Positions 12,043 to 48,631 of a DNA stretch of 64,000 nt are shown here, in pieces. The notes beneath the pieces are model-generated. The model did no database searches. It saw nothing but the letters and a program-made list of their open reading frames with translations, and had not been told where the DNA came from. The DNA comes from a virus (Duplodnaviria; Caudoviricetes), in IMG/VR virus record IMGVR_UViG_3300029305_004678, positions 64,001 through 128,000 of that record. One strand, 5' to 3'. The first letter of the stretch is position 1, and every line of letters starts with the position of its first letter. The translations under genes and the position numbers were made by a program.

Positions 12043-15000
12043 TTACTCATTGTACATATCCTCCAAATATTTTGGCTCAATACCCATAATATCCTTTACC
12101 TGTCTATCGAGTTCTATCATAGCTTTATTTATAGCTCCAGATACCCAAACAGATGTGACCATTCGAGCATTGAAAGAACGAGCTGCAAACAAAGCATGAA
12201 TGTTCTCATCAGGATGATATTCAGAGAAAGGCTCTTTTCCTTCAGGGAAAATATTTTTAACAACACCTTTATTGGCTGATTGGGCGACGCACTTATCTCC
12301 AACAGAAAGCATATCATTATACTTGATATAGAATACAATCATAACACCATCTATAGTATTTTTCATAATACCAGTGGTATCCATTTTGTAGTCAGGATCG
12401 AGTATATTTGCTCCATCGGCATTGTATTTCTTATACAATGCTTTTCGCCTCTTAATATCTTTCTCATATTCTACTACAATCTTACTCAGACTTTCAGACA
12501 TATCTTCAATCTCACAAGTTCTATAGATCTTGATATCCTGAATAGTTCCGGTATATTTACTCTTGAGCCTAATGCGTCCAAGATCAGAGACAAATTCAGG
12601 ATCAGTAATATTCTTCAAAAGAAGGTTAGCATCCTTCTCATCAAATGCATTCTGGAATATGATTAAAGGATCACCTTCTTGTATATACTGACCTACTTTT
12701 ACTAAAGAATATACATTAGCATTCTTTGAAATAGTGACGTCTTTCTGAACTACAACGTCGGTAGCCATAGCAGAAGAAAGCCAACTAGAAACTGATGTGG
12801 AATCTTCAAATCCTTCATCAGTATTCAATATTGCAACCTTAGCTAAAACACCTAAGTTATAAGCAAGATTATCACTTTCGCCAACAGAATTAGAATACGA
12901 TGTTTTATCATATGCTACTATATCATCTTTCTTAAACCTATCTCCAGCTTTAAGATCTGTATCTAGCTTAAGAGTAATATAGAAGCCGCCATCAGAATTC
13001 TTTTTAACCTGTTCTCTAAGATCTATTAATTCATTTGTAATTCCTGTACTACCACCAATAGCTGCTGTATATACAGAATTATCATAATGAATGACCATAA
13101 AATCTTTAGTAACTTCCAATACTTCTCCATTTTCTTTTGCCTTAAATGCAAACGTATCAGAAGATATATATGGCATAGCCTCATCTGCACCATTAGTAAT
13201 TAACAGAGGCATAGATTTAGCTGTACGCATAGAGTGCTTGGATGTCTGAATAAATGTCATTGCGGACCTGAAGGGATCGTCATGGCTTGTTCCGAATGGT
13301 GTTACTGCTTCACTCATACTCAGAGTCTTAGAGACGGACATATCGTCAGGATTGGTCTGCTTTATATATCCACGTATGCCAGCAACATCCATATCAATAG
13401 TAGTCTGTCTATTGATACCAACATTAGCAGCAAAACCTGTAGACATAGCAAGCTTATTAATCATAGAATCATCATATGTACGCTTATCAAGACTATAAGA
13501 TCTATCAGAGTTCATGCCAGAGAGACCTTTAAAGGAAACCGAGTTATTTGCTTCTATCTCAAGCAAAGGATTAAGAATAGAAAGATCAGAAGACATAGGA
13601 TCAGACATAATACCATCAATAACAGCACTACGCTTCATACTAATACCAACTTTTCTTCCATGCTTAACCTGAGATTTATAATCAGCATATGCTTTAGTAA
13701 TAGCCTTATAGAAATAACCAGCAATAATTTCACTTGTTCTATATCTATTACCGGAAATATCTGTATGACGATTATACTTGTTATCTGCTAAAAGATTATT
13801 AGCATACATAAGCATATCGAAATAATTGGAAGGAATTCTACAATCTCTACAGACTTCTGCAGTAATCGGATCTATAAATAGATCTGCGAAGTTATCAAGA
13901 CCGTCAGATAGAATTCTACCACCAAATTCATCCAAGAAATCTAACCACATAGATCTCTTATTAAGATCTTCAAGAGAATATGTCTCAGTAGGACAAACTG
14001 AAAGACCATTTAAGAGCATAGATGTAGCATAATTTACTGGATATCTGATATAGCCATCTGAGAATCTTATAATAGCCTCGGTATCAGGATTGAAGCTCTT
14101 TTTATCATCACTTCTATATTCTCCAGAAATGCCACAAAGTTTCATAACTCCATCCATACCAAGAGAATACCCAATAACAACAACCAGAGGTATTCTATTA
14201 GCCATAACGCTAGCTTCAGAATAATTTAATCTAGTAGCGGATTTTTGAGCTTTAAATAAATCATCAAATTTTATCGACATTGAGGATATTTCATCAGCGA
14301 TCACATAGCTTAACATAGCAGATTGATCTTTATAATATCTCACAGAGCTATCAATTTTATTTATAGCATATGGAATACCGTTTTTCTTATCTGCATCAAA
14401 TTTAGTGTAATATATATCCTGATCAAAATAGTATATTGCTTCTTCGGTTTCTATTCTCATTACATTCTTCGCCACATCTATATAGTCTGTAGGAAGCTCA
14501 TGCTTAGAACAGATAGCACCATTATCGCCAAACACTATCTTTATATCAGAACCATTATACTTACGTAAAGCCTTAATCAATCTATCAGAAGTTGGATAAG
14601 ATCTTCCCTCTAATCCTTTACGTCTGATAAATATCTTGTTATAGTTACTGACACACTGTACAGTGTCCTCATCAGTTTTAAGACAAGGCAATAATAGTAG
14701 CTGACCAGAAACAACTTTCTCATTACCTCTTAATCTCATAAATCTATGATTTATTAATTTAGGTATATCGAATACCAATGTAGATCTCTTTCCATATCCA
14801 TCTTCAGTTACTACAGTATAAGTATAGAGATAATCCATATTATTAGATGTATCCTCAATATTAATATCTACAACAGAGATAGGATATGACTTATTAGCAA
14901 ATGAATGGATAATTTTAATTATATCATTATTTGCATCATAAGCAGCATTAAAGTTAATAAACTTTATGTCATCCCATTCTTCATTTATAGAAGATATATT

Positions 15001-15822
15001 GAGGTGCTTTGAGGGGATAGGAATTTCACTAGTTTTATATACAATATCGCTTATTTTAGTATCGCCAAGCTTTTTATCAAGGAATTCATCATTAAGTTTG
15101 GCTATACGACTAGTACGTGCATTATTAAACTGAGGTTTACCATCATCCTCTTCTTCGAGATCGAGAATAATCTGTTTAATATATTCATCTTCTTCTATAG
15201 CAGACCATGCTTCATCCTCATTCTCCGCATCCTCTGCAGCATTAGCTATCGCTGCTACCAGTTCCTGTTTCTTATCATCTCTTTCAGATTTCTTACTTTC
15301 AAATGTATCAGATACTACATCCTTAACAGGAGACTTCAATCCAGAAACATTAGTAAAATGAGGAATAGAATGCTGAACTAATGTATTTAATAAGAATTCG
15401 ACAGTTCTGAATTCAGAAGATTTATAATCATCTGCATATAAACTAAACGATTCTCTATTATCATTATAAAAAATAAATACGATATTAGAGAACTGCCTTT
15501 TAAATTCATCCGGATTAGATTTAATATAACGGCAGATAGTGCCTAATGGTGTCTTAGACTCTATCAGTCTATTAGTACCCTTTCTATACCATTTAGATAC
15601 AGGTATATAGATGATTCTCTTGGAATAATTACTAACCTCTTTACAAGTTAAAGCTAATAATTTCATAAAAGAAGAATCTTCTAATTTTTGATACTGCTTG
15701 GTATCGATTATAGCACCACGACCATCAAGTTCTTTTATACTGTCGGTTGTGGCTTTGATACCCCTTTTCTTTAATTTAGAATCTATTTCTTGAGTTAATG
15801 CATTTTCATTAAAATAATTCAT
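12043..15822 (-). CDS. Phage multisubunit RNA polymerase beta subunit (large fragment, probably virion RNAP, phiKZ gp178-like) with N-terminal extension
   Basis: RpoB motifs FDIPKL...LRGNEKVVSGQL, PFGTSHDDPFRSAM...Q, GFEDS, VGDKCVAQSANKGVV...NARM; extreme C-terminal beta region missing as in split phage RNAPs; late promoter at 15844-15856. Confidence 0.9.
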   Translation of the reverse strand: MNYFNENALTQEIDSKLKKRGIKATTDSIKELDGRGAIIDTKQYQKLEDSSFMKLLALTCKEVSNYSKRIIYIPVSKWYRKGTNRLIESKTPLGTICRYIKSNPDEFKRQFSNIVFIFYNDNRESFSLYADDYKSSEFRTVEFLLNTLVQHSIPHFTNVSGLKSPVKDVVSDTFESKKSERDDKKQELVAAIANAAEDAENEDEAWSAIEEDEYIKQIILDLEEEDDGKPQFNNARTSRIAKLNDEFLDKKLGDTKISDIVYKTSEIPIPSKHLNISSINEEWDDIKFINFNAAYDANNDIIKIIHSFANKSYPISVVDINIEDTSNNMDYLYTYTVVTEDGYGKRSTLVFDIPKLINHRFMRLRGNEKVVSGQLLLLPCLKTDEDTVQCVSNYNKIFIRRKGLEGRSYPTSDRLIKALRKYNGSDIKIVFGDNGAICSKHELPTDYIDVAKNVMRIETEEAIYYFDQDIYYTKFDADKKNGIPYAINKIDSSVRYYKDQSAMLSYVIADEISSMSIKFDDLFKAQKSATRLNYSEASVMANRIPLVVVIGYSLGMDGVMKLCGISGEYRSDDKKSFNPDTEAIIRFSDGYIRYPVNYATSMLLNGLSVCPTETYSLEDLNKRSMWLDFLDEFGGRILSDGLDNFADLFIDPITAEVCRDCRIPSNYFDMLMYANNLLADNKYNRHTDISGNRYRTSEIIAGYFYKAITKAYADYKSQVKHGRKVGISMKRSAVIDGIMSDPMSSDLSILNPLLEIEANNSVSFKGLSGMNSDRSYSLDKRTYDDSMINKLAMSTGFAANVGINRQTTIDMDVAGIRGYIKQTNPDDMSVSKTLSMSEAVTPFGTSHDDPFRSAMTFIQTSKHSMRTAKSMPLLITNGADEAMPYISSDTFAFKAKENGEVLEVTKDFMVIHYDNSVYTAAIGGSTGITNELIDLREQVKKNSDGGFYITLKLDTDLKAGDRFKKDDIVAYDKTSYSNSVGESDNLAYNLGVLAKVAILNTDEGFEDSTSVSSWLSSAMATDVVVQKDVTISKNANVYSLVKVGQYIQEGDPLIIFQNAFDEKDANLLLKNITDPEFVSDLGRIRLKSKYTGTIQDIKIYRTCEIEDMSESLSKIVVEYEKDIKRRKALYKKYNADGANILDPDYKMDTTGIMKNTIDGVMIVFYIKYNDMLSVGDKCVAQSANKGVVKNIFPEGKEPFSEYHPDENIHALFAARSFNARMVTSVWVSGAINKAMIELDRQVKDIMGIEPKYLEDMYNE

Positions 15823-24765: not shown

Positions 24766-25665
24766 TTAATCTTTGACATACCAAATTGTCACATCAACAG
24801 TTTGCGAACTTAAATCTCTACCTGCGACAATACGAATAGTTGAACCAAACGCAGATACTCTTACATCACCTTCTTGTGCTATGATAGGCATTGCCCATCC
24901 GTCACTTGAACAACCCTCGCAACGAATAATTTTTTGTTGTGTTGGAATCACATTTGGTATATCTCTCTCTCCAGATGCAGGCAGATTTCCACAATTCACC
25001 AGTTTCGTATAAACAATCTTTCCATTCCACCGCTCCGTTGTGATATATTCCACACCAGGAAGCATGTCTGGTGTACTGTCTGCGTATACATTCGCTATGG
25101 TTAATGCACTTGATTCATCAAAATCAGTAACTAATTCAAAGTTTATCGGCGTAAAAATTGTTGTCATTTCTCTTATAGTAATATATACTTGATTATCATA
25201 ATTTAAATTATAGAAGGCGTATATTGTATACTCATATTCATTAGATTTCTTAACTGCTATTTTACTTAATCCATAAGTAGATGGATTAGCAGGCACAATA
25301 GTTCTAGCATTTGCCCAATAATATCCGCTTGTAATTTCAATTAATGCACTTACTGGAGTATTATTATAATAACTACCACCAATATGAAGTTTTACACTCG
25401 CACTATAAGCGTTTTCAGAAATAAAGGTACCAATCTTATACCATCCAGCTGTTACTAGTCGTGATTCCAATTTATGGTCTTGTGGAGCAGCGCCTACTTT
25501 ATCAGCAGTAGTTGGAATTTCATTTCTGTCAGCCTTATTCTCTAGAATTACATTCAAACCAGTACCATCATCATCACTAACAGCACTTATTTTAGTTCTA
25601 GGAAACAGTGCTTCTGATTTATCTTTATCAGAAAATAGAGTTTTAATTTTACCAACTATACTCAT
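24766..25665 (-). CDS. Tail fibre / receptor-binding protein (cassette 1)
   Basis: ALFPRTKISAV N-terminus; MLPGVEYITTERWNGKIVYTKLVNCGNLP C-terminal domain homologous to cassette 2. Confidence 0.75.
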   Translation of the reverse strand: MSIVGKIKTLFSDKDKSEALFPRTKISAVSDDDGTGLNVILENKADRNEIPTTADKVGAAPQDHKLESRLVTAGWYKIGTFISENAYSASVKLHIGGSYYNNTPVSALIEITSGYYWANARTIVPANPSTYGLSKIAVKKSNEYEYTIYAFYNLNYDNQVYITIREMTTIFTPINFELVTDFDESSALTIANVYADSTPDMLPGVEYITTERWNGKIVYTKLVNCGNLPASGERDIPNVIPTQQKIIRCEGCSSDGWAMPIIAQEGDVRVSAFGSTIRIVAGRDLSSQTVDVTIWYVKD

Positions 25666-25668
25666 TTA

Positions 25669-38481: not shown

Positions 38482-38621
38482 TTTATATTCTCCTTTCAAG
38501 AATAAATATCTTTATTATTTCGTTTTTTTTTTGTAGAACAAAGTGGCCTAAAAGCGTCATTTTTGCTCATATAATTATATATTATAATCATGAAAGAAAT
38601 ATAAATAGGAGGTATTAATCT

Positions 38622-44249: not shown

Positions 44250-45515
44250 TTATTCATCAGGCAGGAATGCCTTCATAGGATCCATCTCTGTAAAATTAAG
44301 CTGATCATCGTGGAACAGTTTCATAGATAGAACTTTAAGCTTAGAAGGAATCTGAGGGGTAGATGCACCAATATTTCTAATACCTAATCTATAAAATAGA
44401 TTACCAGCACATTTATTGCAGATACCATTCTTTGCTTCGCACATGGAAGAGAATCTAATCTTAATCTTCTTACCGATAAATTTATCTTTATTCTCGGAAG
44501 TAATTTCTATCAATTCTCCATTATCCATTATTACGTAGCAATACATAATTGAGCCTATATTCTTATCAGTAACATTAACTTCTATATATCGTTTTGTTCC
44601 GCAATCAGTATCAGGATCTAGTAGAACTACATGCTGAAATGCAACGAGCAGGAGCTTCTCCCAGTATCCACCTAATTCTGTCTTTTTAGAACGAGAGTAG
44701 GGTCCAGCTGCAAGAGTATTTGCTAACTTGGAATATTCTTCTTTAGAAACTCCATCGATATAATTAGAAGTAATAATATTATAACTCTTTCTAGGATCCG
44801 GATCTTGTACAGAACCTCTCATGATAAACATATTCTTGAAGTTATTTTCAAAAGATCCACCAGCACCAGAGAGGAACATGTCCATAGCAGGATCATCTTT
44901 CATCAACTCTCTAGCATATTCGAGAAGTTCTTTACTAATCTTATCAACTACGATGACATCTCCAGCATCAATAGCAGCTTTATTCTCTTTAATAAGTTCT
45001 TCTTTTCTCTTATTTATACGCTTAGTGATAGTAAGCATATTATCAGAGTGGTTAGGTGCGAGAATACTTACATAAGGCATAAACTTCTGACTCTTTTTAC
45101 AGAAAGTTTTATAGCATTCAATACTTATCTTATCTTCTAGAACAGCATAACCGAGTTTATCGAACAATCTACCATATGCTTTCTTACTAATATTTTCATC
45201 TACATATCCAATGAATCCAAGAAGTTCAGGGTCACTCTCAATAAAGAATTTATTGAATATAAGGCGACCTATAGTAGTTGTAAAAGGTTGCTTGTTCTTC
45301 TTCTCATTTCCATTAGAAAGAAGTCCACCATAACCACCAATTGGTACAGTGATAATATCATATGGATTAAACCACTGGTGCTTGTTAAAGTCGCCAAATA
45401 GCTCCATAATTAAACTAGTAGTAATATCTTCTTCTTTTAATTTAACAATATATTCAATATCCTTAGGATCTGTAATCTGTTTAGAAACTCTTTTCTTTAC
45501 AGAAGTAGTAGCCAT
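44250..45515 (-). CDS. RNA polymerase beta' C-terminal subunit (phiKZ gp80-like split)
   Basis: TTIGRLIFN, SNYIDG, bridge helix KTELGGYWEKLL, DCGT, IRFSSMC...ICNKCAG Zn site, trigger-loop LSMKLFH. Confidence 0.88.
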   Translation of the reverse strand: MATTSVKKRVSKQITDPKDIEYIVKLKEEDITTSLIMELFGDFNKHQWFNPYDIITVPIGGYGGLLSNGNEKKNKQPFTTTIGRLIFNKFFIESDPELLGFIGYVDENISKKAYGRLFDKLGYAVLEDKISIECYKTFCKKSQKFMPYVSILAPNHSDNMLTITKRINKRKEELIKENKAAIDAGDVIVVDKISKELLEYARELMKDDPAMDMFLSGAGGSFENNFKNMFIMRGSVQDPDPRKSYNIITSNYIDGVSKEEYSKLANTLAAGPYSRSKKTELGGYWEKLLLVAFQHVVLLDPDTDCGTKRYIEVNVTDKNIGSIMYCYVIMDNGELIEITSENKDKFIGKKIKIRFSSMCEAKNGICNKCAGNLFYRLGIRNIGASTPQIPSKLKVLSMKLFHDDQLNFTEMDPMKAFLPDE

Positions 45516-45615
45516 ATCAGATAAAATCCCCTTTCAAGTAAATTTAATTACTTATAAGTTCAAACTCTTAAAAATATGTAAAAAATAAAAGGGAGGCTTT
45601 ATAGCCTCCCTTTAC

Positions 45616-47796
45616 TTATGCTGGTATAAGTAACCCTATCCGTTTAAACACATTATTAAGCTTATCTATCTCATCAACTGAAAGAATGTTTTCTAATATA
45701 AGAATATTAGCACAAACATCACCAACATAATTAAATTTATGAAGAAGTAATTTAGATAGAATTTTTTCTTCATCTTCTCTAAATCCGATGCTTGTAAGTG
45801 GACTATAAAAAATATCATTGAATTCTTTCAATCCGTATATAATGACCTCAGCACAATAGTTAAACATCTGTACCGATATACTTTTAGTATTTCTATCATG
45901 TTCCAACAAATAATCTATAGAAATACCAGATTCAATCTTATTGATTAATTCCATACAATCGTTGAATTTAATGAATCTTAAGATCAATCTATCTAGATAT
46001 GCATCATCCGCTCCAGGGAGATGGTACTGACCTGTCGCATAGAGTATCTTTTCACATACAGAAACACTATCTGGAATTTTATAAGGCATTCTCGGAGTGA
46101 TGAAATCAATAAATAAACAATAATCTTTAATAAGAATTTTATTAGCGACTTTGATCTTGTCATAATTCAAATCATCAAGATCATCAATTGTCCATCTGAT
46201 GATATCAAGCAGCTCCCTCAAATTATATATCTGATGTGGATTTATATACCTATTTATTGTACATAATCTGATTCCCCACATCAATATATTCTCTGGAAGG
46301 AGATTATTCTGATTTGTTCTCACATATTCTTTTGCTTGTTCAATAGATACGGTCAATAGTTTCATAAGAACAGGATTAGAGGATATTTCATAAACTGCAT
46401 CCTTCCATATACCGGAAGCACTATAGCCAGGAACCATGTGAGCAACTTCTTTAGAAGTTTTATGATCTCTATAAATGGCCAAAACTACTTTCTTTGCATA
46501 TTTCGTAGTTAAGCAATCAAGTACAAAATTCAAACCATCAATATTTATCTTATCAGAAGTAATATCACTACTTATTTTAGATACAAAATTAATAGGCCAA
46601 ATGTCTTTCTCATCTCTCATTTCATCTTTTGTATAATATAGGCATCCACCTTCCTCATTCTTTTTCATCTTATCAGATTTGTTCATGGTCCTACCTCCAG
46701 GAGATTTAGTATTCTTGAATAGTGGGGCATCTTTACGATATCTTGGGATATCAATACCATATCTCTTTGATACTTTAATTATTTCATCAGCATTGACATC
46801 TCCTATACCATTCATACTCAGTAGGCTTATTCTAGATAGTGACTTTAAGTCGCATATATTTTTAATTCCATTTTCTTTAAGCCTATTTATCACTCCAGAT
46901 TTAAGATCTCCCTTCAATCTATCTATAGAACTCGATTCTGTAATAGGACTAGAAAGTTTATGTTCTTCCTCCTTCTTTTTTATGGTAGGTCTAATACCAA
47001 GAGCCAGCGCTTTTGCAATTCTGGGTTCTCCTAATATCCTAAATATATTATCTATAGCATGTTGGATGTCTTTCTCATCGCATTTCATTTTTATAGAGAT
47101 TTCTCTATATGTCATATTTTCCTTATATTTCATTACAATAAGATCAAGTTCATCACCATATACACCCATATTAGATAATACATACTCAATATTCTCTTCG
47201 AAGTTTCTAGGAAGATCTTTAATATCTTCATTCCTATTAACAGAGTATAGCCTTCTATATACATTGCTCGGATAACTGTCTTTAATAAGTCTATACATCG
47301 TATCAACTAGATTAAACTCGATAAGAGCATCTTGAGCAGCATAAGCATATTTCTTAGGAATTGCATCAGCATAGTATAAATCAATTAGATCAGAAATCAT
47401 GGTATATTGATACTTTCTATCGAGAATAGTTATCAAATCTAATGGAATAGGAAGATAACTTATATGATACCTTGTGGTATTATACGAAATCTGATAGACT
47501 AGTTCTCCAATCTCATTTCCATAATATGCAACAGATTTTAAAAATCCATTGTTCTTTAACCTTTTCAAAGTGTTCTTAAGAATAAGAGTAAGTTCATCAA
47601 CATTAATACCATGCTTAGCAGCGATTTCTTCTAACTTGAGTTCCCCTCTGAAATAATCTACGATATAAGAATACACGGTTTTATTCACTATGAGGCCCTC
47701 TAATACTATACCAATTAAGTGCTCGTCTGCCTTAATATTTGTTATTGTCGGGTATATACATCTTATCATTCGCATTTGCCAATTTACTTGTTTCAT
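45616..47796 (-). CDS. Tandem sigma-region-4 HTH / RNAP alpha-CTD repeat protein (about 4 units)
   Basis: HTH KYKENMTYREISIKMKCDEKDIQHAIDNIFRIL; alpha-CTD SIDRL...VINRLKENGIKNICDL...LLSMNGIG; degenerate copies before and after. Confidence 0.75.
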   Translation of the reverse strand: MKQVNWQMRMIRCIYPTITNIKADEHLIGIVLEGLIVNKTVYSYIVDYFRGELKLEEIAAKHGINVDELTLILKNTLKRLKNNGFLKSVAYYGNEIGELVYQISYNTTRYHISYLPIPLDLITILDRKYQYTMISDLIDLYYADAIPKKYAYAAQDALIEFNLVDTMYRLIKDSYPSNVYRRLYSVNRNEDIKDLPRNFEENIEYVLSNMGVYGDELDLIVMKYKENMTYREISIKMKCDEKDIQHAIDNIFRILGEPRIAKALALGIRPTIKKKEEEHKLSSPITESSSIDRLKGDLKSGVINRLKENGIKNICDLKSLSRISLLSMNGIGDVNADEIIKVSKRYGIDIPRYRKDAPLFKNTKSPGGRTMNKSDKMKKNEEGGCLYYTKDEMRDEKDIWPINFVSKISSDITSDKINIDGLNFVLDCLTTKYAKKVVLAIYRDHKTSKEVAHMVPGYSASGIWKDAVYEISSNPVLMKLLTVSIEQAKEYVRTNQNNLLPENILMWGIRLCTINRYINPHQIYNLRELLDIIRWTIDDLDDLNYDKIKVANKILIKDYCLFIDFITPRMPYKIPDSVSVCEKILYATGQYHLPGADDAYLDRLILRFIKFNDCMELINKIESGISIDYLLEHDRNTKSISVQMFNYCAEVIIYGLKEFNDIFYSPLTSIGFREDEEKILSKLLLHKFNYVGDVCANILILENILSVDEIDKLNNVFKRIGLLIPA

Positions 47797-47918
47797 AATT
47801 TCATTCTCCTTTTCATATATCTGGCTTGTGGTAACCAGATATTATTATCATTTTTATAATATCTTATTAAATTAATGAAAAATACAAAAAAAAAATAAGG
47901 AATGGCAAATACCATTCC

Positions 47919-48509
47919 TTATTCTTCTTTCTTTAAAGATAATCCATGTTCTGCAAGCTTTTCTTCAAGAAGAGATACAGTAGCTTCTCCCATACTTCTT
48001 GCTTTCATGATATCTTTTCTAGTAAATTGAAGGAGATCTCCAACAGTTTCAATATTCTTATCTATACCTATAAGCCATTTGGAAGTTTCTATAGAATTAT
48101 AGAATCTCATAGGCATATGTAAGAAACAGATATCCCATTCAATAACAGGACCATTTAGAAGTCGTTCTGTTTGATCTACTCCCCTAGTTAGAATATATCT
48201 TGATAATCTATTTTGATAAAGCTTTCTGAGAGATACAGATCTGATTATACTAACCTTCTGGGGTGCAACAGATGTCTTTTTAGCAATAGCATATCTATCA
48301 ATCTTATCTTTATAGAAGTAAAGCATAACTTCTTTCTCATCTTTATCTAGAGCGACATCCATAGCCTTTAACACTGTAGTCTCAAGATTTTCAGGTGTAG
48401 GTTGAGAAATACCAAAAAGATTAATGAAAAGATTCTTGGGCCATTTCCATGTACTTGTTGCAATTAATGTTTTTACTCCTTTAGAGCGTGTATCGCGATA
48501 TTCCTGCAT
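47919..48509 (-). CDS. Single-unit sigma4 HTH - alpha-CTD fusion protein
   Basis: LDKDEKEVMLYFY...IAKK...VSIIRSVSLRKL then IETVGDLLQFTRKDIMKARSMGEATVSLLEEKLAEHGLSL. Confidence 0.8.
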   Translation of the reverse strand: MQEYRDTRSKGVKTLIATSTWKWPKNLFINLFGISQPTPENLETTVLKAMDVALDKDEKEVMLYFYKDKIDRYAIAKKTSVAPQKVSIIRSVSLRKLYQNRLSRYILTRGVDQTERLLNGPVIEWDICFLHMPMRFYNSIETSKWLIGIDKNIETVGDLLQFTRKDIMKARSMGEATVSLLEEKLAEHGLSLKKEE

Positions 48510-48631
48510 GTTGCTTATTCTCCTTTTATGGTTTTATATTAATAATATATTTATTTTTCTTTTCATATTTATATTATATACCCAAATAAAGAAATACCGG
48601 GTGGACTATTGCCCACCCGGATTATTAAATA

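Follow-up and report, generated by a model that had tools for sequence, protein, structure and literature searches.

Single and concatenated sigma region 4/alpha-CTD units encoded beside a virion RNA polymerase gene of an AR9-related giant phage: candidate mimics of the host promoter-recognition face

The window analysed here, a stretch of 64,000 nucleotides covering bases 64001-128000 of a 159.8-kb IMG/VR virus genome (IMGVR_UViG_3300029305_004678, ~65% complete by estimate), contains two neighbouring minus-strand genes, whose products of 196 and 726 amino acids (aa) are built from parts resembling the promoter-reading end of bacterial RNA polymerase (RNAP): a short N-terminal helix, a helix-turn-helix (HTH) of the sigma-70 region 4 type (sigma-4) and the C-terminal domain of the alpha subunit (alpha-CTD). 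Judged from sequence and profile comparison, the 196-aa protein is a full member of a widespread, mostly viral and unnamed family, and the 726-aa protein, a concatemer specific to this lineage, joins one intact unit to two units in which only sigma-4 is clearly recognisable. Neither protein contains a sigma region 2, 3 or 1.2 (e.g. PF04542; even at E <= 1) or an alpha N-terminal domain (PF01000 / PF01193) according to Pfam and NCBIfam, and since sigma region 2 and the alpha N-terminal domain are missing, the proteins should be able neither to open promoters nor to assemble a polymerase. Both are thus predicted to be neither sigma factors nor RpoA, being non-catalytic assemblies of copies of RNAP parts, whose most likely role is to disturb the control of host transcription and not to transcribe. 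The positions of all features are outlined in Table 1.

Both open reading frames (ORFs) are real, as their homologues are conserved in metagenomes; for the 196-aa protein 15 such homologues with 60-84% identity were found. The first-pass annotation of the stretch had proposed one complete helix/sigma-4/alpha-CTD unit in 47919-48509, and this unit was recovered in full: a profile of outside single-unit family members (A3) matched the protein with E 2e-17 over model positions 7-196 in a six-frame search of the 160-kb genome, which returned four matches only, all of them within the two mimic genes. Its alpha-CTD scored 24.2 bits with Pfam PF03118 (RNA_pol_A_CTD; cut-off 23.8), the best solved relatives being the Bacillus subtilis chains 3ihq, 3gfk and 1z3e (E 6e-6 to 1e-5). 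Against the family profile of helix plus sigma-4 the protein reached 42.7 bits, and the profile of the 15 homologues gave weak PDB matches to region 4 of FliA and SigF over residues 30-94; the Pfam sigma-4 model alone stayed below its cut-off for the copies of this phage. The AlphaFold2 (AF2) model has an overall predicted local distance difference test (pLDDT) of 60, with means of 66-90 in blocks of 10 residues over residues ~41-110 (77-90 over 41-100) and moderate values for the alpha-CTD. Foldseek placed this model next to alpha-CTDs (probability 1.0, ~40 residues), sigma-4 domains and chimeras of sigmaA region 4 with the beta flap-tip; no match at E <= 0.001 was obtained for the 196-aa or the 726-aa model.

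A search of the 726-aa profile against 1.84 billion representatives retrieved, besides orthologues, ~14 proteins of ~195-330 aa, which align to residues ~170-355 of the concatemer, the stretch of its second unit. These outside members carry clear Sigma70_r4 (PF04545) and RNA_pol_A_CTD (PF03118) domains with Pfam E values down to 1e-13 and 1e-20, respectively. Their sigma-4 is of the primary-sigma type, matching RpoD models and bearing an ...LRKLRHPSRS tail, and all of them start with [WY]PxN[LIV]xx[LIV][FL]G. In the ESM Atlas the sigma-4 plus alpha-CTD architecture occurs in several clusters of 57-179 members, which are mostly viral (those of 98-179 members mostly Uroviricota). None of the family members looked up bears a name, no paper on a helix/sigma-4/alpha-CTD fusion family was found in the literature, and among GenBank phages the search gave no relative of the 726-aa protein and, for the family, only partial alpha-CTD or sigma-4 matches. 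Compared with the fusion family (P0022, P0028, P0034), the 196-aa protein and unit 2 of the concatemer match end to end, with the same three parts in the same order; what differs is that here three units lie on one chain, that two of them lack a recognisable alpha-CTD and that the DNA contacts are largely replaced. Among the proteins retrieved, multiplied whole helix/sigma-4 units are confined to this phage lineage. Arrays of the alpha-CTD were also seen elsewhere in metagenomic proteins: seven were detected in the 570-aa P0026 and four near-identical ones in P0039, and P0035 and P0027 combine one sigma-4 with three subsequent alpha-CTDs, so that alpha-CTD multiplication is recurrent. What is new here is the concatemer, the erosion of the DNA contacts and the link to phage AR9.

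The 726-aa protein has three full or partial homologues (P0001, 57% identity; P0002, 64%; P0018, 721 aa, distant). Its unit 2 is matched by A3 over the entire unit (E 9e-39), and in hhalign comparisons with the family its sigma-4 part and its alpha-CTD reached 99.6% and 98.4%, respectively; the unit as a whole is colinear with the small-protein family at 94% probability. Unit 1 was hit by A3 in its sigma-4 part (E 3.5e-3 genome-wide); its N-terminal part (M1n) aligned to the family helix plus sigma-4 profile (hhalign 95%, E 2.6e-8), and the whole unit to the small-protein family, colinear over residues 19-193 (90%, E 1.5e-6). For unit 3 the A3 match covers helix and sigma-4 (E 5e-6), with hhalign values of 97.7% (E 2e-12) for the N-terminal part and 44% (E 2.4e-4) for the whole unit, and at the same position of the orthologue P0018 Pfam recognises Sigma70_r4 with E 8e-12. 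The family helix plus sigma-4 profile gave 13.0, 70.4 and 19.9 bits for units 1, 2 and 3. Furthermore, the corresponding N-terminal parts of the three units and of the 196-aa protein are mutually related in profile-profile comparison (E 1e-3 to 2e-6). Out of the approximately four units previously counted in 45616-47796, three colinear ones (M1 90%, M2 94%, M3 44%) therefore stand. A fourth sigma-4 unit was rejected, as residues 566-662 show no sigma-4 similarity and resemble neither any unit nor the family.

The assumption of one alpha-CTD per unit proved partly right. It is detected in unit 2 (98%) and at the C-terminus (64%), but not independently in units 1 and 3, where the segments in its place are helical and of the right length and gave, when searched alone, E values of 0.004-0.04 (0.03-0.04 for unit 1), which are not significant. 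The segment of unit 1 (SYNTTRYHISYLPIP..YTMISDLID) is the best-conserved stretch of the 726-aa protein and has the pattern I-x-[FY]-L-x-[MI]-P-[ML] in common with helix 1 in the alpha-CTD of the 196-aa protein. For residues 490-726, nine of the ten nearest ESM Atlas structure rows are PF03118 clusters, with template modelling scores of 0.27-0.36 by query. In the domain mapping by structure and profile that the first-pass annotation recommended, hhalign maps three units and the AF2 HTH of the 196-aa protein is confident; the AF2 model of the 726-aa protein, built on a three-sequence alignment, has a pLDDT of 41 and is unusable for assigning doubtful segments. In this model the linker at residues 353-397 is of low confidence with little secondary structure, and its Foldseek neighbours are alpha-CTD and sigma-4 chains. 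Residues ~616-670 are unrelated to sigma-4 and match the fourfold repeat of the metagenomic protein P0025 in every copy (BLASTP E 7e-7 to 1e-4, ~30% identity); P0025 belongs to no Pfam family, and most of its PHROG matches have no known function, two being annotated as virion structural or head decoration. In summary, the concatemer consists of three tandem units, a different small domain and a probable alpha-CTD remnant. The orthologues conserve every unit in its individual form, suggesting that the partners differ from unit to unit.

In the holoenzyme, sigma-4 docks on the flap-tip helix of the beta subunit. The family appears to carry a helix of this kind in front of its sigma-4, with the [WY]PxN motif located at residue 23 in the 196-aa protein and at 175 and 400 in the 726-aa protein. 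A position-specific scoring matrix (PSSM) was derived from 20 non-redundant outside family members (13 columns with a 9-column core). With all 13 columns, the 196-aa protein scored 18.2 bits compared to a shuffle maximum of -1.7 +/- 3.6, unit 2 scored 15.7 bits, the eroded helix of unit 3 scored 4.7 and unit 3 of the orthologue P0018 scored 15.8; unit 1 gave no match. When the 9-column core was run over Escherichia coli beta (translated from NC_000913.3, 1334 windows), K900-E908 (KLLRAIFGE), the flap-tip helix, ranked first of the 1334 windows with 14.2 bits, the runner-up reaching 2.4; only 0.3% of the shuffled E. coli beta sequences attained 14.2 bits. The N-terminal helix of the family thus looks like the natural docking site of sigma-4, and we infer that each unit may cap its own sigma-4 in cis. 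The phage itself encodes a 1259-aa beta-like RNAP subunit ORF at 12043-15822 (-) of the window (Pfam RNA_pol_Rpb2_6, 30 bits); in this ORF, the one of its kind found and scanned, no flap-tip-like motif is present.

In order to compare the DNA contacts, the copies of this phage were aligned to E. coli sigma-70 and alpha, with six family members as outside reference. The -35 contact set comprised R554, R562, R584, E585, R586, R588, Q589 and K593 of E. coli sigma-70. Substitutions are found at these positions, where aligned, in the 196-aa protein, unit 1 and unit 2; in unit 3 the alignment reaches R554 and R562 alone, both of which are replaced, and the set is also largely replaced in the sigma-4 copies of the distant orthologue P0018. 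The hydrophobic core of sigma-4 (F563, L598, L607) is retained. In the 265 determinant of the alpha-CTD the 196-aa protein keeps R265, N268 and G296 and carries K297E, K298A, C269S and S299T, and unit 2 keeps N268 and G296 and carries K297D, K298V and, by manual alignment, R265G. The sigma-4 of unit 2 is acidic (pI 5.1), the 196-aa protein has an overall pI of 9.3 and the 726-aa protein a net charge of 0. With most of the canonical -35 and UP contact residues replaced, reading of promoters in the canonical way is predicted to be unlikely for these proteins in this phage, a protein decoy or a changed DNA specificity being more probable; the previously proposed blocking of host promoters by the canonical route is unlikely as well. 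The giant-phage copies have shed canonical DNA contacts and kept the fold, which predicts protein targets.

Expression signals place both genes apart from their neighbours. The motif ATATATTAT-N5-T-[GA] occurs in 14 copies in 160 kb, 13 of which lie no more than 120 nt ahead of a same-strand gene (background 6%); copies within the window are found e.g. at 38577 (+), 37773 (-) and 48550 (-). The experimentally defined early promoter consensus of AR9 is AAATATATATTAT-(6N)-G (PMC5312081). The early signal of the present phage is nearly identical to it, although the polymerases share only ~34% protein identity. An intact copy precedes the 196-aa gene; the 726-aa gene is preceded by a variant of the AGATATTAT class, of which three of six copies lie upstream of genes, making the class of this gene less certain. 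The late AR9 consensus AACA-N6-T[AG] is absent upstream of both mimic genes, and an intrinsic terminator follows each of the four genes at the locus. From these signals, both mimic genes appear to form separate transcription units among late genes, outside the beta'-C operon, and are probably early. The reported position of the concatemer gene directly upstream of beta'-C is correct, with the restriction that a terminator (45613-45588) separates the two genes. An internal ATATTAT...TGA at 47513-47527 was discarded, since two mismatches in the 9-mer make it not promoter-grade. In the predicted leader of the 726-aa gene, a hairpin with a 6-bp stem (ATCTGG...CCAGAT, 47819-47840 (-)) lies between the putative start site at 47849 and the ribosome-binding site.

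One family member is encoded by a model phage. AR9 BI022_gp119 (237 aa, annotated as 'RNA polymerase'; NC_031039.1 93982-94695, minus strand) was identified with a genome-wide E of 8e-6 and by hhalign (95%, E 3e-8), and gives weak Pfam matches to sigma-4 and alpha-CTD. By a constant offset of one in the gene numbers, it presumably corresponds to g120 of the AR9 transcription study, a monocistronic early gene amid late genes, which has a mapped early promoter and belongs to the eight 'pre-early' transcripts peaking 5 min post-infection (PMC5312081). Like the proteins described here, g120 combines sigma-4 and alpha-CTD on a single chain in a giant phage with two multisubunit RNAPs; unlike them, it has a single unit without a significant flap-tip-like helix, an extra C-terminal region of ~80 aa and another genome position. 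The genes on either side of BI022_gp119 are those for the head protease and the terminase, so that proximity to an RNAP gene is not a conserved feature, and the loci of AR9 and LPJP1 that are syntenic to the window contain no family member. No member was detected at E <= 0.1 in LPJP1, BpSp, SA1, JD-Fnp1, MarsHill and phiR1-37, where very divergent copies could escape; since these six related giant phages show none, the family is regarded as accessory and not as a polymerase subunit. AR9-type phages have been stated to lack genes homologous to RNAP subunits for assembly or specificity (PMC5312081), a statement with which the family membership of g120 sits awkwardly. With AR9 on Bacillus subtilis, a model phage on a tractable host, the family becomes testable.

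As the function of the two proteins we tentatively favour that of multivalent decoys or adaptors for host proteins which dock on sigma-4 or the alpha-CTD, because the canonical DNA contacts have been eroded, with the individual form of every unit conserved. Both proteins would be made early in infection from promoters of the virion RNAP, like AR9 g120, and would mimic the upstream promoter-recognition face of the host enzyme during takeover. Capping in cis would keep sigma-4 folded and soluble off the polymerase and would make it unavailable to the beta flap. As targets we envisage host factors that normally bind sigmaA region 4 or the alpha-CTD, such as activators, Spx-type or anti-sigma-type regulators, and not canonical -35/UP DNA; as the outcome, sigmaA-dependent regulation of the host would be uncoupled, and the phage would transcribe itself with its own enzymes. 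The core idea of the first-pass annotation, mimicry of the upstream face of the host holoenzyme, is thus retained and extended by the flap-tip-like helix; titration of the host beta-flap, which it had also considered, is disfavoured if sigma-4 is capped by its own helix. If the decoy reading is true, the proteins would be natural probes for whatever docks on sigma region 4 and the alpha-CTD in Firmicutes.

Several findings weigh against decoys or adaptors. The N-terminal helix of the 196-aa protein lies in a low-confidence region of the AF2 model (pLDDT 31-46), which leaves cis-capping to the sequence likeness, and the early class of the 726-aa gene depends on a motif with one mismatch, the virion RNAP of AR9 being reported as sensitive to single mismatches. 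Other findings point to DNA as the ligand. The six outside members mostly retain R554, R562, R586, R588, Q589, K593, R596, R599 and R603 of sigma-70 and nearly all of the alpha-CTD residues R265, N268, C269, G296, K297/K298 and S299; as the outside family keeps most canonical DNA-contact residues, its ancestral role was probably DNA binding. In this phage, the sigma-4 of the 196-aa protein is basic (pI 9.7) with conserved K/R on the recognition helix, on top of the retained R265, N268 and G296 of its alpha-CTD. The alpha-CTD reads AT-rich minor grooves, and the early promoters of the phage are an extended AT-rich element. The proteins might consequently occlude or regulate promoters by binding DNA, either host sigmaA promoters with UP elements (shut-off) or the AT-rich early promoters of the phage (shut-off or timing), the three units of the concatemer allowing multivalent or multi-site binding. 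We rank direct DNA binding, with an altered specificity, second to decoys or adaptors and consider it rather unlikely in view of the loss of the -35 contact set in all four sigma-4 copies of this phage, the acidic recognition helix of unit 2, the replacement of K297 and K298 in both detectable alpha-CTDs (with R265 apparently replaced as well in unit 2) and the zero net charge of the 726-aa protein.

The position of the 726-aa gene next to the virion RNAP beta'-C gene raises the question of an accessory or specificity factor that supplies sigma-4 and alpha-CTD functions in trans to the sigma-less and alpha-less RNAP of the phage. No sigma or alpha homologues have been described for these polymerases, and the promoter finding of the virion enzyme is unexplained (PMC5312081, PMC7824862). 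Such a role, equivalent to the upstream recognition for the phage enzyme put forward by the first-pass annotation, nevertheless appears improbable: six of the seven related giant phages checked, which have the same polymerases, show no family member, and the adjacency is not kept in AR9, whose copy lies elsewhere, nor in the syntenic loci of AR9 and LPJP1. Moreover, a terminator parts the 726-aa gene from beta'-C, and the mimic genes, which have promoter motifs of their own, are probably early units; AR9 early transcription requires no newly made protein; the scanned beta-like ORF offers no flap-tip-like motif for sigma-4 docking, and sigma-4 is apparently self-capped. A more elaborate version, which we regard as quite improbable, sees the concatemer as a multivalent scaffold in which each diverged unit has its own partner and which passes upstream recognition, or activators of the host, on to the phage polymerases that have neither sigma nor alpha; it would thereby replace both missing functions in trans and take part in the early-to-late switch. 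Packaging of the proteins into the virion as injected effectors is suggested by the neighbouring genes, which encode virion structural proteins (phrog_20751, DUF7208/phrog_3315) and a subunit of the virion RNAP, and by the resemblance of residues 616-670 to the P0025 repeat with its virion/decoration PHROG matches. This explanation seems highly improbable, as the promoter motifs are of the early and not the late type, AR9 g120 is pre-early, early genes amid late genes are normal in AR9 and neither protein has a structural PHROG match.

Table 1 Features of the locus (positions in the window; residue numbers refer to the respective protein).
Feature	Position	Strand	Details or evidence
196-aa protein gene (flap-tip-like helix, sigma-4, alpha-CTD)	47919..48509	-	ORF with AAGGAG ribosome-binding site
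N-terminal flap-tip-like helix WPKNLFINLFGIS, residues 23-35	48405..48443	-	family PSSM
Sigma-70 region-4-type HTH, residues 42-107	48189..48386	-	profile, AF2/Foldseek, weak PDB matches
RNAP alpha-CTD, residues 118-192, 8-residue insertion after helix 1	47934..48158	-	Pfam, PDB
Early-type promoter ATATATTAT-TAATA-T-A, 41 nt before ATG of 196-aa gene	48535..48550	-	intact motif
Intrinsic terminator after 196-aa gene	47886..47931	-	
726-aa concatemer gene	45616..47796	-	ORF with AAGGAG ribosome-binding site
One-mismatch early-type motif AGATATTAT-AAAAA-T-G, 68 nt before ATG of 726-aa gene	47849..47864	-	
Unit 1, residues 1-172	47281..47796	-	sigma-4-like HTH 27-89, then conserved segment in alpha-CTD place
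Unit 2, residues 172-352, complete	46741..47283	-	helix YPSNVYRRLYSVN 175-187; sigma-4 197-268; alpha-CTD 290-352
Basic linker, residues 353-397	46606..46740	-	pI 9.4, net charge +4
Unit 3, residues 398-566	46099..46605	-	eroded helix WPINFVSKISSDI; sigma-4 420-488; 490-566 helical
Sigma-4-unrelated segment, residues ~616-670	45787..45951	-	resembles fourfold repeat unit of P0025
C-terminal alpha-CTD remnant (probable), residues 662-726	45619..45813	-	hhalign against family alpha-CTD 64%, E 6.5e-5
Intrinsic terminator after 726-aa gene, between it and beta'-C gene	45588..45613	-	
998-aa virion structural protein		-	phrog_20751
292-aa DUF7208 protein		-	DUF7208/phrog_3315, virion structural
Virion RNAP beta' C-terminal subunit gene, 421 aa	44250..45515	-	phrog_2962 E 1e-69; context, outside the mimic system

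The two mimic genes belong to a run of five consecutive minus-strand genes with products of 998, 292, 196, 726 and 421 aa. By sequence comparison the source is a giant phage that has AR9/PBS1 and Listeria phage LPJP1 as distant relatives. The neighbouring gene at 44250-45515 had been taken for a phage RNAP subunit gene, which is confirmed by the 34% identity of its product to AR9 BI022_gp263/g264, the beta'-C subunit of the virion RNAP; the best protein identities of this subunit amount to only 34-36%. Searches of viral, genome and metagenome contigs for related loci found no relatives of the locus. For AR9 gp226, the specificity subunit of the non-virion RNAP, the genome contains a single match outside the window at 25419-25667 (-), which is weak and partial (E 1.7e-5, 82 residues inside a 135-aa open frame); the counterpart may be split, very divergent or located on the missing third of the genome.

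Phages disable or redirect host RNAP by small binders and modifying enzymes. Here, a phage carries copies of the promoter-reading parts of the polymerase itself, one protein having three units, and under the favoured decoy or adaptor reading these copies would act on the partners of the host enzyme. The closest structural counterpart is the upstream assembly of the holoenzyme (PDB 3N97, 1LB2), which contains the same three elements, with the alpha-CTD located beside sigma-4 on UP/-35 DNA and sigma-4 seated on the flap-tip. Engineered chimeras of sigmaA region 4 and the beta-tip (7KUG, 7KUF, 8D5V, 8CWR) are also alike, and Foldseek returned these PDB entries among the neighbours of the 196-aa model (probability 0.85-1.0). 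In contrast to holoenzyme and chimeras, the phage parts lie on one chain that lacks the remainder of the polymerase, sigma-4 comes after the flap-tip-like helix, and most contact residues for -35 and UP DNA are not conserved. A functional analogy exists with T4 AsiA/MotA, T4 Alt and gp67 of Staphylococcus aureus phage G1, to which no sequence similarity was seen in the Pfam and PHROG scans. These proteins address the same target zone of host RNAP with the same early timing; they are, however, binders or modifiers of unrelated folds, whereas the phage proteins described here appear to copy the targets.

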